Origin: Minisyncoccota bacterium | Lineage (GTDB): Bacteria > Patescibacteriota > Minisyncoccia > Phycocordibacterales > UBA9973 | Direction of reading: 5' to 3' | Assembly (NCBI GenBank): GCA_036517215.1 | Contig: DATDXF010000016.1 | Location: 3,175-67,174 of the forward strand | Length of the DNA stretch: 64,000 nucleotides | Shown here: one piece after another, positions 16,278-62,692 of the stretch | How the letters are laid out: each line of letters begins with the position of its first letter | Numbering within the stretch: the first letter of the stretch is position 1 | The notes under the pieces: model-generated | The model's database searches: none | The model's input: the letters and a program-made list of their open reading frames with translations, nothing else | What the model was told of the DNA's origin: nothing | Made by a program: the position numbers and the translations under genes

Positions 16278-16369
16278 TGGCGGAGCCGGGCGGATTCGAA
16301 CCGCCGAGGGGTTTTAAAGCCCCTGCCTCTTTAGCAAAGAGGTACGTTAGACCACTCTGACACGGCTCC
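16278..16369 (-). tRNA. tRNA-Ser (anticodon GCU), type II, CCA encoded
   Basis: Minus-strand reading GGAGCCG...CCTCT-TTGCTAA-AGAGG...long variable arm...GGCGG-TTCGAAT-CCGCC-CGGCTCC-G-CCA; 7/7 acceptor pairs. Confidence 0.8.
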
Positions 16370-16458: not shown

Positions 16459-16544
16459 GGAGAGATGGGTGAGTGGTTTAAACCAACAGTTTACTAAACT
16501 GTCGTCCCCTAAAAGGACCGAGGGTTCGAATCCCTCTCTCACCG
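16459..16544 (+). tRNA. Type II tRNA with apparent anticodon ACU (Ser-like; G73 discriminator, 3-bp D-stem, 17-nt variable arm), CCA not encoded
   Basis: GGAGAGA-TG-GGT-GAGTGGTTTAA-ACC-A-ACAGT-TTACTAA-ACTGT-CGTCCCCTAAAAGGACC-GAGGG-TTCGAAT-CCCTC-TCTCACC-G; acceptor 6/7 (A3:A70 mismatch). Confidence 0.6.
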
Positions 16545-16589
16545 CATTGACAACTTAGTATCGGTGTGTCCTTGTTGCTTATGGCAACA

Positions 16590-34419: not shown

Positions 34420-34565
34420 AATTTAATTATATGCCCGTTCGACATGCCCTTCAACTTCGTTCAGGGCAAGCTCAGGGCACTCGCCTCAAAATACCCTTAG
34501 AGTTCCTTGGGTGTTTTTGCTGTGGCTTGCCACGAGCGAATTTTGTCACTACAAAATGAGTCGAG

Positions 34566-34963
34566 TGGAGATGACGGGAATCGAACCCGTGTGCAAAAGG
34601 TTTTTGCAAAGAAGTCTACATGCTTAGCGAGCTTTTTTGTTTAGATTAAAAAATTCTTAAGCGGGCCAAATATTTTTTAACCGAGTTCTAAGTTTTCGAA
34701 AAATGTTCGAACGGGCATTTCCTTATCCCGATAATATTACACCTCTACTCATATATCGGAAGTCTATGAGAGAGACGCCGGCACTCGCTTACGCGAAAGC
34801 TGGAACGAAAGCAAAGTCCTTCATACCGAAGTAATCAGAAACAATTGCTTTAGTTTTGGTAGTCAATTTTGCAATTAACATTTGAACGAATTTTCACGAG
34901 ATTACGTTCATGCTCGACATGCATCAATAGCAAAGCGACCTTCTGTCTATGCCTTGCATCCCC
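34566..34963 (-). ncRNA. ssrA: tmRNA (transfer-messenger RNA)
   Basis: 5' GGGGAUG pairs 7/7 with 3' CAUCUCC-A including G3:U70 alanine identity pair; T-arm ACGGG-UUCGAUU-CCCGU; in-frame GCA resume codon at nt 92 then 27 sense codons ending GCU-UUC-GCG-UAA (..PAFA); smpB immediately upstream on same strand. Confidence 0.8.
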
Positions 34964-49894: not shown

Positions 49895-50530
49895 TCAACG
49901 AGCGCTGTTATGGTGACGATTTTGAATCACCTCACGCACCAGCAAGCTGGTCAAGGGTTGCGACAGTCGAGTCTGGATTTCCGAAAGAAAATCCAGGTCT
50001 TCTGGAGACACGGAAGTTTCTCCGCTATCCACGATGGCCTGGAGGAACGGTAGGATGTTCGACAGATCCCCCGAATCTGTCGCCTGCAACAACTCGAGTA
50101 TTAGCTCTGGGGAAACAGGATACAACAACCCGTGCCTCAAAGACTTGAGGGTGGCAAACTGCTGTGACGATACTGAAGCTACACCACTTCTGATGACAGC
50201 TTCAATTAGAAGCATCATGTCGGTAATGTTTCTTTTCTTTTGCTCCGCCTTTGCCACGACGAGCAGTAATCCCTCGGAAACCTCGTCTGTTACCATACGG
50301 ACAAGTTCCTCGGCCGACACCCCCATCGCAACGGCGAAGCCGGCAATCACACGAGGCTTTAGTTGTATGTTCTTGAAGATGATGAGGTTCGAAATGGTTC
50401 CCTGGGCCACTCCAACCTCCCTCGCAAACTCCTTTTGGGTCTTGTGGGAACTCGCAAGATACTCCTTCACCTTAACGCTGAACGCTACATTACTTCTCAA
50501 TAGGTTGACCCTACTGTTTTTTGTTTTCAT
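49895..50530 (-). CDS. XRE-family (Cro/C1-type HTH) transcriptional regulator with ~140-aa C-terminal helical domain
   Basis: 211 aa; KTQKEFAREVGVAQGTISNLI HTH; local GC ~52%. Confidence 0.6.
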   Translation of the reverse strand: MKTKNSRVNLLRSNVAFSVKVKEYLASSHKTQKEFAREVGVAQGTISNLIIFKNIQLKPRVIAGFAVAMGVSAEELVRMVTDEVSEGLLLVVAKAEQKKRNITDMMLLIEAVIRSGVASVSSQQFATLKSLRHGLLYPVSPELILELLQATDSGDLSNILPFLQAIVDSGETSVSPEDLDFLSEIQTRLSQPLTSLLVREVIQNRHHNSAR

Positions 50531-50693
50531 GGAACTCTCCTTTTACTTTATATTACATATTTTAATCAAATTGTCAAGATATTTTACCAATTTAATTTAT
50601 TTTAATCCATATAAAACAAGGTTAGAAAGATTTCCTCAGAATTTTGTTATATTTTATTGACACAAAACCAGTATTGGTATATAATGGCTAAAT

Positions 50694-60632: not shown

Positions 60633-60980
60633 CTATTTCTTTTTCGCGTCATCGGCAGCCGCGGTCGCGGACTTAGCCTGGGCTATTTCGGCTTCTTTCT
60701 TCTTCATTTCAAGCTCTTTCTGCATCTTTCCTCCGTGCTTCATAAATTTCTTCGTTGGAGAAAATTCGCCAAGTCTGTGACCTACCATGTCTTCGGTAAC
60801 CAGAACCTCTACGTGCGTCTTGCCGTTATAAACTCCAAAAGTAAAACCGAGCATCTCCGGGGATATCATGCAGGCCCTTTTCCATGTTTTGACCATCGGG
60901 GTCTGGAGCGGGTTAAGGCCCTCAATCTTTTTTAAGAGCCTTTCGTCAATATTCAGTCCTTTTTTGATACTTCTAGTCAT
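60633..60980 (-). CDS. rpsS: 30S ribosomal protein S19 (Lys/Ala-rich C-terminal extension)
   Basis: Start at MTRSIKKG; track start at 61016 adds 12 non-conserved residues. Confidence 0.85.
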   Translation of the reverse strand: MTRSIKKGLNIDERLLKKIEGLNPLQTPMVKTWKRACMISPEMLGFTFGVYNGKTHVEVLVTEDMVGHRLGEFSPTKKFMKHGGKMQKELEMKKKEAEIAQAKSATAAADDAKKK

Positions 60981-61077
60981 GGTTATTTTCTCTCGTATAA
61001 ACAAAACGGCTCTCATTTGAGCCTTAAATCATACTAACAAATTCAGGAAATAAGTCAAATAAAAGAAATAAAAGGAG

Positions 61078-61442
61078 AACGGAGGGCCGTCGCGTCGCGA
61101 AGGCCCTCCATTGGGGACTGGTTCATAGAACCGGTCCGGGGATGATTGGGCGTAGAAGCCCAGTGGGATGGGTGGAGAATCACTTACTGCGCCGTCCTTG
61201 CGCTATTCGGTGTCCTCCGGCGGGAAGGGTTCAACGGATGTTCTCGGACCCCGACGTCCAGGTCAGTAACTGATCCAACTGCCCGTCGAATGTAGGAACC
61301 CCCACCGACAGTTGTACGTCTTCTTTCGAATGTACAACCGAATTCTCTCTTCGTGGCGGGCGTTCCGGTTCCCTCTAGTGCTCATTGTGCATGGCTCCTT
61401 CTTTGGCGAGCTATCGCTATAGTCCTTCGCCTTCGTTAGGGA
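61078..61442. other. ~360-nt GC-rich (~57-68% GC), ORF-free, stem-loop-dense block between rpsS and rplB; candidate structured RNA
   Basis: Perfect hairpins GGAGGGCC-N13-GGCCCTCC, GACTGGTTC-ATA-GAACCGGTC, GGGC-GTAGAA-GCCC, GTTGTAC-N13-GTACAAC; no ORF >=60 aa in any frame. Confidence 0.4.
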
Positions 61443-61572
61443 TTATATCATACATATTAAAAAAGTCAATGTCAAGATGTTGATAAATCTTGTAAAAATA
61501 AAAAAAATCCCTCCGTGGGAACTTGTGAATCCTGTGTATTAAAAATTAATTTTTAGGACTACAAAGTGAAAA

Positions 61573-61588
61573 GGCGTCGATTGACGCC
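61573..61588 (-). terminator. Rho-independent terminator GGCGTC-AATC-GACGCC + TTTTCACTTT (minus strand)
   Basis: 26 nt after stop of the 39-aa ORF. Confidence 0.6.
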
Positions 61589-61614
61589 TTCGGTGGATGG
61601 AGAGAAAAGCTATG

Positions 61615-61734
61615 CTACTTCTTGAAAACCCGGCCGTTGTACGACTTGCGTGGCGGCGGAGCCTTTACCTTGACGGCGTTGGCGACGTTTTTCGAGTTAG
61701 CTTTCTGCTCCCGAATCAGTTCTCGAAGTGCCAT
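61615..61734 (-). CDS. Candidate small protein (39 aa: MALRELIREQKANSKNVANAVKVKAPPPRKSYNGRVFKK)
   Basis: GGAGAATGTACATC-ATG Shine-Dalgarno, followed by terminator; below the ORF-track length cutoff; inside the rplB-rpsS spacer. Confidence 0.4.
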   Translation of the reverse strand: MALRELIREQKANSKNVANAVKVKAPPPRKSYNGRVFKK

Positions 61735-61803
61735 GATGTACATTCTCCTCACAAATATTATAACATTTTTAAAGAAAAAAGCAACAAAAAATCCCTGTAA
61801 CGA

Positions 61804-61843
61804 GAAAGGCCCGGCCTTCGTAAATACGAAGGCCGGGCCTTTC
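61804..61843. terminator. Perfect 17-bp GC hairpin GAAAGGCCCGGCCTTCG-TAAATA-CGAAGGCCGGGCCTTTC with flanking A/T runs (bidirectional)
   Basis: 10 nt after rplB stop. Confidence 0.7.
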
Positions 61844-61852
61844 TTTATTTTC

Positions 61853-62692
61853 TTATTTATTCTTTCCGGTCTTTCGGCGGGAAACTATAAAGACGTTTGA
61901 GTATTTCTTCGGCCCGCGGGTCTTCCTGCCTCCGGTAACTTTACCCCACATGGTTTTTGGCCTCTTGGTTCCTCGTCCTTGTCTGCCTTCACCTCCTCCG
62001 TATGGATGGTCTACCGGGTTCATCGCCGTTCCGCGGACAGTAGGTCGTATCCCCTTCCACCTGGAGCGTCCCGCTTTTCCGTAATTTTCCAAATGATGTT
62101 CTTCGTTAGAAACAGTACCCACGCACGCGTAACACTCTTCGTTTATTTTTCGAACTTCTGTGGAAGGCATTTTTATGTTTGTGTACCCATCCGCGTTTGC
62201 CACGACTTGCGCGAATATTCCCGCGCTGCGGCCTATCTTTGCTCCGCCCATGGGCTTTATCTCAATGTTGTAAACAAAAGTTCCTACCGGAATGTTTTTA
62301 AGAGGGAGTCTGTTGCCTGCGGTCAAGGGAGCTTTCGGGGAAACAATAAAAGAATCACCGGCCTTTACGGATTTGGGCAAAACAACGTATCTCTTTTCTC
62401 CGTCGCGGTAAACAGCAAGCCCGATAAAAGCCGAGCGGTTCGGGTCGTATTCAATAGATTTTATTTTTGCGGGAATTTCTTTTTTGTCATACAGGAAATC
62501 AACATCCCGGTACAAGCGCTTGTGTCCTGCCCCTTTGTGGCGCATGGTAATGCGTCCCTGGCTGTTTCGTCCTACCGAACGCCTGAATCCATAAGTGAGA
62601 GACTTGGTCGGAGTGGATGTGGTTAAAACTCCCCTGTAGCTCACATTGGTCATTTGTCTCCTTGATTTACTTGTAGGTTTATATGTTTTCAT
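61853..62692 (-). CDS. rplB: 50S ribosomal protein L2
   Basis: Start at MKTYKPTSKSRR; track GTG extension adds MGATCLTCEKQF; 1-nt discrepancy between track frame and displayed coordinates noted. Confidence 0.85.
   Translation of the reverse strand: MKTYKPTSKSRRQMTNVSYRGVLTTSTPTKSLTYGFRRSVGRNSQGRITMRHKGAGHKRLYRDVDFLYDKKEIPAKIKSIEYDPNRSAFIGLAVYRDGEKRYVVLPKSVKAGDSFIVSPKAPLTAGNRLPLKNIPVGTFVYNIEIKPMGGAKIGRSAGIFAQVVANADGYTNIKMPSTEVRKINEECYACVGTVSNEEHHLENYGKAGRSRWKGIRPTVRGTAMNPVDHPYGGGEGRQGRGTKRPKTMWGKVTGGRKTRGPKKYSNVFIVSRRKTGKNK

Follow-up and report, generated by a model that had tools for sequence, protein, structure and literature searches.

A GC-rich block between rplB and rpsS in a groundwater Nomurabacteria population as a candidate small-ORF cassette at a variable site

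We analyzed the spacer between the ribosomal-protein genes rplB and rpsS in a 64,000-nt stretch of contig DATDXF010000016.1 (assembly GCA_036517215.1, from a Minisyncoccota bacterium), which is referred to here as the window, with a focus on a GC-rich block at 61078-61442 that lies in the rpsS-proximal half of this spacer. Both genes belong to the S10/spc ribosomal-protein cluster on the minus strand, and we measured 872 nt between them, in agreement with the approximately 870 nt given in a preliminary description of the sequence that had proposed the block as a candidate novel structured RNA. The L2 protein encoded in the window shared 84-92% identity with L2 of metagenome-assembled genomes of Candidatus Nomurabacteria (Paceibacterota, candidate phyla radiation [CPR]). 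On balance, we give a probability of about one-half to the block being an orphan, independently transcribed accessory cassette with a small open reading frame (ORF), specific to a strain or population and residing in an insertion hotspot between rplB and rpsS. In the direction of minus-strand transcription, the block and its flanking core genes comprise the following features, with folding given as free energy and as a z-score against shuffled sequences:

61853..62692, minus strand: rplB (ribosomal protein L2), the upstream core gene; an ORF, with the Pfam domains Ribosomal_L2_N and L2_C on identical products
61442..61475, minus strand: two overlapping predicted promoters of the block, TTGACA-17-TATGAT and TTGACT-16-TGnTATAAT (extended -10), each matching 11 of 12 consensus positions
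61405..61431, minus strand: 5'-proximal hairpin of the predicted transcript, weak (-8.7 kcal/mol, z = -1.7)
61395..61400, minus strand: Shine-Dalgarno (SD) sequence AAGGAG, with the ATG at 61385 following after 9 nt
61263..61385, minus strand: ORF40, 40 codons, MSTRGNRNARHEERIRLYIRKKTYNCRWGFLHSTGSWISY, with a pI of 10.9 and a grand average of hydropathy (GRAVY) of -1.13
61113..61262, minus strand: GC-rich 3' region of ~150 nt, about 61% GC, with no codon periodicity (GC by phase, 0.58/0.58/0.68)
61064..61112, minus strand: intrinsic-terminator-like hairpin (61078-61112, inverted repeat I4; -26.5 kcal/mol, z = -5.7) with a U-rich tail, GUUCUCCUUUUAUUUCU
60633..60980, minus strand: rpsS (ribosomal protein S19), the downstream core gene; an ORF, with the Pfam domain Ribosomal_S19 on an identical product

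The GC content of the block is 57.5% versus 43.1% for the window (standard deviation of 6 points in 200-nt windows), confirming the earlier observation of a GC-rich core in a genome of ~43% GC. Its 100-nt GC maximum of 0.64 is the highest among the 18 intergenic gaps of the window and lies above the tRNA and transfer-messenger RNA (tmRNA) regions. The sequence is not of low complexity. Exact-protein look-ups for L22, S19, and L2 led us to further contigs carrying the spacer (ANAN16-1 samples, JGI 3300002502 and 3300025317, and several ERZ assemblies), all from the same groundwater population. The entire spacer was 100% identical (99.8% in one contig) across contigs of at least eight independent samples, and the sole variant copy differed by two single-nucleotide polymorphisms, at 61601 and 61603, outside the block. 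Because an identical spacer was obtained in at least eight independent assemblies, the block is not an assembly artifact.

Predicted transcription and a small ORF

A sigma-70-type promoter upstream of the block and an intrinsic terminator downstream were found on the same strand, both as consensus matches. From the position of the -10 box, we infer a transcription start near 61435 (about 61434-61437), which would yield a separate minus-strand transcript of about 365 nt. Thus, the two promoters with 11 of 12 consensus positions and the -26.5 kcal/mol hairpin with its U-rich tail support the earlier suggestion that the block may be independently transcribed. On the plus strand, we detected no promoter or terminator in a matching position for the block, and the hairpin at 61078-61112 has an A/T run before rather than after it on that strand, so that a plus-strand transcript was rejected. 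Over 43-47 nt, the block promoter shared 88% and 81% identity with promoters that immediately follow rplB in two relatives, L006 and L022 (L numbers label the rplB loci of relatives and further contigs). These similar promoters appear to drive unrelated cargo: in L006 this is another unit of high GC content and in L022 an AT-rich ORF of 49 aa.

Near the 5' end of the predicted transcript, AAGGAG is followed after 9 nt by an ATG and then by 40 open codons. The preliminary description had called the block ORF-free, which is correct in that no frame contains an ORF of at least 60 aa (the longest reach 40-49 aa), but misleading in view of this 40-codon ORF with a canonical SD sequence. An SD sequence, an ATG, and an ORF of at least 30 codons within the first 100 nt occurred together in 1.7% of dinucleotide shuffles of the block. 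GC content by codon position in the ORF40 region was 0.34/0.54/0.68 (41 codons), and the 3' 150 nt lacked such periodicity. The chi-square for this periodicity was about 9.6 (p about 0.008), for a region that was picked post hoc and with an atypical direction (GC1 < GC3).

Initiation signals of this type are rare in the host. We observed an SD-like 4-mer at 3 of 66 host start sites in the window, and at least one of those three ORFs is probably spurious. Many host genes instead have a TATAAT only 6-10 nt before the ATG (for example, at starts 3337, 5454, 10951, 12123, 15097, 36583, 45884, and 50694), which suggests that leaderless mRNAs are widespread in this genome. The only intergenic units with an SD sequence and a small ORF in the 64-kb window are the two cassettes of the rplB-rpsS spacer, namely, the block and an upstream unit described below as cassette 1. 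The high GC content, long leader, and SD-dependent start of the block set it apart from the AT-rich, SD-less, and often leaderless host genes and suggest a foreign or recently arisen sequence. For the block, the rarity of SD sequences, the rarity of such an arrangement in shuffles, and the apparent codon periodicity favor an mRNA. In a separate part of the window, a minus-strand gene of 211 aa (49895-50530) is the only long gene with a strong SD sequence (AAGGAG). By eye, its product resembles an XRE-type helix-turn-helix regulator, and it adjoins a gap of 23% GC (50531-50693); this gene may be another foreign insert.

Several points weigh against a translated cassette. A GC1 below GC3 is unusual in genuine genes, and random ORFs in GC-rich sequence look basic owing to their Arg codons. 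ORF40 spans only a third of the predicted transcript, was called by gene callers in none of the contigs, and is without a credible homologue. In an organism that rarely uses SD sequences, AAGGAG may not be a working ribosome-binding site. Furthermore, the U-tract of the block's terminator is interrupted.

The predicted ORF40 product would release tryptic peptides that include LYIR, TYNCR, and WGFLHSTGSWISY. A word-index search of 5.8 billion clusters detected no homologue of ORF40, and comparisons with Pfam and PADLOC gave no match. In an exhaustive phmmer search of 1.84 billion representatives, the only hits were WG-repeat proteins with multiple repeats, each matching through 3-25 short stretches. 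We rejected a kinship with these proteins (the similarity of RWGFLHSTGSWI and KWGFIDKTGKWVI) as repeat-amplified chance, with many short repeats hitting the same ~15 residues. A type I toxin-antitoxin locus was likewise rejected because the ORF40 product is hydrophilic and basic and no plus-strand promoter was detected facing the block. The preliminary description had also considered that a frameshift-corrected protein-coding gene might be found here. When all nine long stop-free segments from the six frames were concatenated and 8000 candidates were scored, none reached an E value of ≤1, and we rejected a frameshifted or decayed known gene as the source of the block.

RNA structure and homologues of the block

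The block had been described as hairpin-dense, with at least six perfect hairpins. Counting Watson-Crick stems of at least 6 bp with loops of at most 20 nt, we found two (61081-61109 and 61311-61338), compared with 1.4 ± 1.2 in dinucleotide shuffles, and one of these is the terminator. With G-U pairs allowed, the counts were at shuffle level on either strand, so that the description of a hairpin-dense block could not be maintained. Folding of the whole block gave z-scores of -4.2 on the minus strand and -3.3 on the plus strand, which fell to -1.8 and -2.0, respectively, for the core (61115-61436) without the terminator hairpin. This fall indicates that the whole-block scores derive mostly from the terminator hairpin. 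In the 3' region (61113..61262), z was -0.6 on the minus strand and -1.5 on the plus strand, and a local hairpin at 61115-61137 reached -11.9 and -16.4 kcal/mol, respectively. Together, the hairpin counts and the core z-scores suggest that the degree of structure in this GC-rich block does not exceed what would be expected from its composition.

We ran the cmscan check against Rfam that the preliminary description had recommended. Rfam 15 at gathering score gave nothing in 61000-61900, nor anything relevant in 16 related loci. With permissive filters at an E value of ≤10, the spacer search returned in the block only 6C (21 bits versus a gathering score of 47), frnS, and CC2171. None of these hits was relevant; they scored far below threshold and owed their scores to the terminator hairpin. 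The reported lack of RNase P, signal recognition particle (SRP), 5S, and 6S RNAs was confirmed, with no such match at gathering score and only unrelated noise at an E value of ≤10. Considering the lack of an Rfam match, the chance-level hairpins, the marginal core z-scores, and the lack of a homologue, the proposal of a large structured noncoding RNA, ribozyme, or intron remnant does not hold up, and we found no evidence for the block as a conserved structured RNA or a new RNA family.

A different possibility, which we regard as rather unlikely, is a lineage-specific noncoding or dual-function small RNA (sRNA), for which the 365-nt transcript would itself be the product, serving, for example, as a regulator in trans or as a protein sponge, with the ORF being incidental or secondary. 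The strong promoter and terminator of the block suit such an RNA, as does the location of two-thirds of the transcript outside the ORF. The block is also the most GC-rich intergenic segment of the window, and a GC-rich intergenic segment in an AT-rich genome is the signature used for finding structured RNAs. Folding of the whole transcript (z = -4.2) and of local hairpins that beat shuffles (61115-61137, z = -3.2; 61303-61346, z = -2.3) points in the same direction, and some of the cassettes found in relatives, whose z-scores range from 0 to -8.7, are very strongly structured (z = -8.7 for the whole cassette of L002). However, the core without the terminator is only marginal (z = -1.8 on the minus strand), the hairpin count is at chance level, and no Rfam family matched even at an E value of ≤10. 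The best local hairpin is better on the plus strand, where its G-U pairs correspond to C-A mismatches on the minus strand. In addition, we found no extended complementarity to the block elsewhere in the 64-kb window and no homologue in the collections searched, hence no covariation.

These collections began with the rplB loci of 80 related GTDB species, which were fetched with L2. Neither blastn (word size 7) nor nhmmer matched the block to any of these loci, so that the recommended nhmmer check, applied to the rplB loci of related species, produced no homologues. The only pieces of the spacer shared with the 80 species were the block promoter (L006 and L022) and the rpsS promoter and leader. 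A scan of viral contigs with a longest-open-frame pseudo-protein detected no homologue of the block, and blastn in distant mode detected none in phage and plasmid collections. The same pseudo-protein scan of metagenome contigs gave none among the matches listed, which carries little weight since this collection is evidently without this strain; a scan with the conserved promoter pattern found only two contigs there, both of the L006 species. Global alignment of the block to the cassettes of seven relatives gave best z-scores against shuffles of 3.4 (L004) and 2.3 (L005). We rejected L004 as a homologue, since local alignment of the whole spacers matched only a shared terminator-promoter module outside the block. 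We found nothing relevant in the literature on noncoding RNAs in CPR bacteria or on insertions between rplB and rpsS. The preliminary description had stated that its proposal would fall if the block lacked homologues or covariation and were unique low-complexity DNA; the first part applies across all collections searched, but the block is not of low complexity.

The rplB-rpsS site in related species

The S10 ribosomal-protein operon is usually unbroken, and rplB and rpsS had been assumed to be normally adjacent, which fails in this clade. Across 64 related species for which a single locus contained rplB as well as rpsS, the gap ranged from 23 to 3726 nt, with a median of 531 nt. It was at least 200 nt in 45 of these species and at least 1 kb in 21. 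For 16 further species, rpsS was undetected downstream of rplB within 4 kb, or within less where the contig ends sooner.

In a minimal state (L007, L014, and L017), the spacer consists of the rplB terminator, the rpsS promoter, and a leader hairpin. Relatives with ~90% identical L2 are without the block or have unrelated inserts, and some of their spacers are only 130-170 nt. Unrelated inserts in L001, L002, L004, L005, L006, L009, L016, and L022 are mostly GC-rich and 0.3-0.5 kb (L022 is not), and nine loci contain a block at least 15 GC points above the local background. Each of these inserts combines a promoter with a small ORF behind a strong SD sequence, frequently together with a 5' hairpin, and a terminator is visible at the end of most of them. 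Many of the SD-preceded small ORFs are basic, and they are unrelated to one another. Judged by eye from translations, RelE-like and HicAB-like pairs are present at other loci (L003 and L012), and L008 has a RayT/IS200-like transposase flanked by palindromes. Apart from promoter, terminator, and leader, the spacers are unrelated, so that a variable site is flanked by core genes. The picture from these sequences is of a hotspot with cargo swapped between conserved terminator-promoter modules.

Two further observations concern the cassettes of relatives. A 5' leader hairpin, CCUGYUCUUU...GRRCAGG, lies just before the SD sequence in L005 (4965-5010), L011 (4950-4995), L016 (3850-3915), and L002 (4860-4905). 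It shows a compensatory change of U-A to C-G in L005, the downstream ORFs of the four cassettes are unrelated, and the hairpin may be a conserved leader element. In addition, L006 differs from L088 and L089 over 1300 nt at only two positions, 2 nt apart, at 2907-2909 in its GC-rich cassette. The change from CTAGCTG to CTTGATG converts a TAG stop codon to TTG and extends an SD-preceded ORF from 48 to 85 aa.

The rplB-rpsS spacer of the window contains additional modules of this kind on both sides of the block, including a second cassette (cassette 1) in its upstream half:

61803..61844, strand not assigned: 20-bp perfect palindrome right after rplB, a bidirectional terminator-like hairpin (inverted repeat I1, 100% complementary; -39 kcal/mol, z = -10.4)
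61757..61784, minus strand: putative extended -10 promoter of cassette 1 (TTGCTT, 16 nt, TGtTATAAT), read from the sequence
61615..61734, minus strand: small ORF of cassette 1, 39 aa (42 aa from an upstream ATG), MALRELIREQKANSKNVANAVKVKAPPPRKSYNGRVFKK, with a pI of 11.2 and preceded by GAGGAG
61570..61591, minus strand: terminator hairpin of cassette 1 (-14 kcal/mol, z = -5.5), followed by UUUUCACUUU
61500..61520, minus strand: remnant of an rplB-type terminator, TCCCACGGAGGGATTTTTTTT, judged by its likeness to the terminators that directly follow rplB in L004, L006, and L016
61031..61058, minus strand: promoter of rpsS (TTGACT-16-TGnTAGTAT), conserved in relatives
61008..61023, minus strand: conserved rpsS leader hairpin, GGCUC-AAAUGA-GAGCC, with a U-run; a terminator-like site

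The palindrome after rplB is consistent with the earlier statement that strong terminators flank this gene. At the same palindrome, contigs L099, L100, and L101 end and contigs L081 and L083 start, all in independent short-read assemblies; these breaks could be due to the palindrome itself or to population heterogeneity at the hotspot.

Cassette 1 shares its design with the block, including a promoter, an SD sequence, a small basic ORF, and a terminator. Its putative promoter matches the -35 consensus at 3 of 6 positions and was not flagged by the consensus scan, but it has a homologue in the promoter that follows rplB in L004 (local alignment GGGATTTTTTGTTGC...TATAAT), and the terminator-promoter module of cassette 1 matches the module directly after rplB in L004. 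Gene callers called the cassette 1 ORF in L091, L094, L095, and L097. A homologue search with this ORF (ORF42) matched only itself. An 11-nt direct repeat, AGGGATTTTTT on the minus strand (repeat D6), brackets cassette 1 at 61786-61796 and 61502-61512, and the second of these copies sits inside the remnant rplB-type terminator. The direct repeat and the terminator remnant suggest duplication or recombination of terminator-promoter modules.

This apparent module duplication is also what one might expect if the block were nonfunctional debris, either a decaying foreign GC-rich fragment or a dead cassette left between duplicated modules, which may be transcribed but would make no selected product. 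Consistent with debris, the block is confined to one population and has no DNA or protein homologue in any frame, and the L006 ORF toggles between 48 and 85 aa by two adjacent substitutions, as under weak constraint. In opposition to this idea, the promoter, SD sequence, start codon, and terminator of the block are intact and close to consensus, and the absence of six-frame likeness to a known protein gives no support to a recognizable pseudogene origin. The invariance of the sequence in at least eight samples also argues against decay, although weakly, since these represent a single population. We consider debris an unlikely explanation.

Immediately downstream of the block, the rpsS promoter is followed at about +1 by a hairpin of 5-7 bp and a U-run, in the same position upstream of rpsS in L001-L068. 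A search for a hairpin with a U-run upstream of rpsS gave picks in 54 of 63 sequences, some of them spurious or far from rpsS. In 41 hand-selected sequences, all five stem pairs showed compensatory changes (AGCUC:GAGCU, GGCUC:GAGCC, CCCGC:GCGGG, CGCGC:GCGCG, and ACGCC:GGCGU), with the 100% pairing being partly by construction because the search itself required pairing. We consider this hairpin, which has no Rfam match, a candidate for a conserved leader or attenuator of the rpsS-rplV-rpsC sub-operon.

By its location directly upstream of rpsS on the same strand, the block could itself be imagined as a long regulatory leader or attenuator of this sub-operon, with transcription reading through into rpsS unless stopped at 61112..61078; the interrupted U-tract of the terminator makes such read-through plausible. 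However, a conserved promoter and leader hairpin that belong to rpsS itself lie between the block and this gene. Moreover, the block is absent in close relatives, as noted above for those with short spacers or unrelated inserts, which indicates that it is not a core regulatory leader, since such a leader would be conserved. We therefore regard a role of the block as an rpsS leader as highly improbable.

Other features of the window are unrelated to the spacer. A tmRNA on the minus strand (34563-34963; 133 bits) has a ~48-nt insertion in its tag region. The tag assigned by ARAGORN, ARSNIFRKLRTRLKNIWPA, looks misplaced, and the Rfam alignment suggests by eye a long tag ending in ...PAFA*. A tRNA-Ser with the unusual anticodon ACU (16459-16545, plus strand) adjoins a tRNA-Ser(GCU) on the opposite strand (16278-16369).

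Interpretation and comparison with known systems

Our results are consistent with a model in which the near-consensus sigma-70-type promoter at 61475..61442 would fire at about 61435, producing a ~365-nt transcript that opens with a small 5' hairpin. Ribosomes would then use AAGGAG and, 9 nt on, the ATG of the 40-codon ORF to make a very basic, hydrophilic peptide. After about 150 nt of GC-rich 3' untranslated region, the strong hairpin and U-rich tail at 61112..61064 would end the transcript and insulate rpsS with its own promoter and leader. Homologous recombination, with the highly conserved flanking genes rplB and rpsS and the repeated terminator-promoter modules as substrates, probably exchanged the inserts at this site, and the block is probably a short-lived accessory mini-gene of one groundwater Nomurabacteria population.

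A broader reading of the same observations would make the break between rplB and rpsS a dedicated cassette site in Nomurabacteria and related Paceibacteria, at which small, GC-rich, long-leader, SD-dependent units turn over rapidly and have products whose target is either the ribosome or the cell that hosts these episymbionts. Each unit, which would be expressed beside ribosomal genes, would carry a 5' hairpin and a tiny basic ORF between its promoter and its terminator. The products would be basic peptides or structured RNAs, with SD-dependent initiation in an otherwise SD-less, often leaderless genome. We view an undescribed class of this sort as doubtful, more so than the debris discussed above.

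The small-ORF cassette that we favor is of modest interest for CPR genome biology, in that the Nomurabacteria have a split S10 operon that acts as a hotspot for tiny accessory cassettes, which are unlike the host in composition and translation signals, being GC-rich and having SD-dependent starts. If expressed, such cassettes would provide bacteria of very small genome size with small basic orphan peptides or with sRNAs. Because ribosomal-protein blocks are used for CPR phylogeny and binning, a variable spacer within them matters, and several assemblies break here.

Among known systems, the block resembles large or housekeeping structured RNAs (OLE, GOLLD, HEARO, ROOL, raiA, RNase P RNA, SRP RNA, 6S RNA, and tmRNA) in being a GC-rich intergenic segment of a few hundred nucleotides in a genome of 43% GC. 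These RNAs are all Rfam families defined by conservation and covariation, in contrast to the block, which matches none of them and whose core folding is unexceptional. L4-regulated attenuators of the S10 leader type also lie upstream of ribosomal-protein genes and have a hairpin with a U-run, which fits the short conserved hairpin at 61008-61023 and not the unconserved 365-nt block.

Closer in layout are dual-function or small-ORF-bearing sRNAs such as SgrS/SgrT, RNAIII/delta-hemolysin, and SR1/SR1P, which are a few hundred nucleotides long, are transcribed from their own promoter to an intrinsic terminator, and have a short ORF with an SD sequence near the 5' end, the rest of the RNA being longer and untranslated. 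Each of those RNAs is conserved in its genus and pairs with defined targets, whereas the block has no homologue or detected complementarity.

Strain-variable cassettes in horizontal-transfer hotspots, which carry orphan small ORFs, toxin-antitoxin systems, or IS200/RayT elements, form a further comparison. The site considered here differs from those hotspots in lying inside the S10 ribosomal-protein operon and in having tiny cargo (0.3-0.4 kb) with its own promoter and terminator, and for the block itself we found neither an integrase nor an att site nor a target-site duplication. The similarities are a host-atypical composition, the presence of toxin-antitoxin-like pairs and a transposase at the same site in neighboring species, and a content that differs wholly between species whose flanks are ~90% identical.

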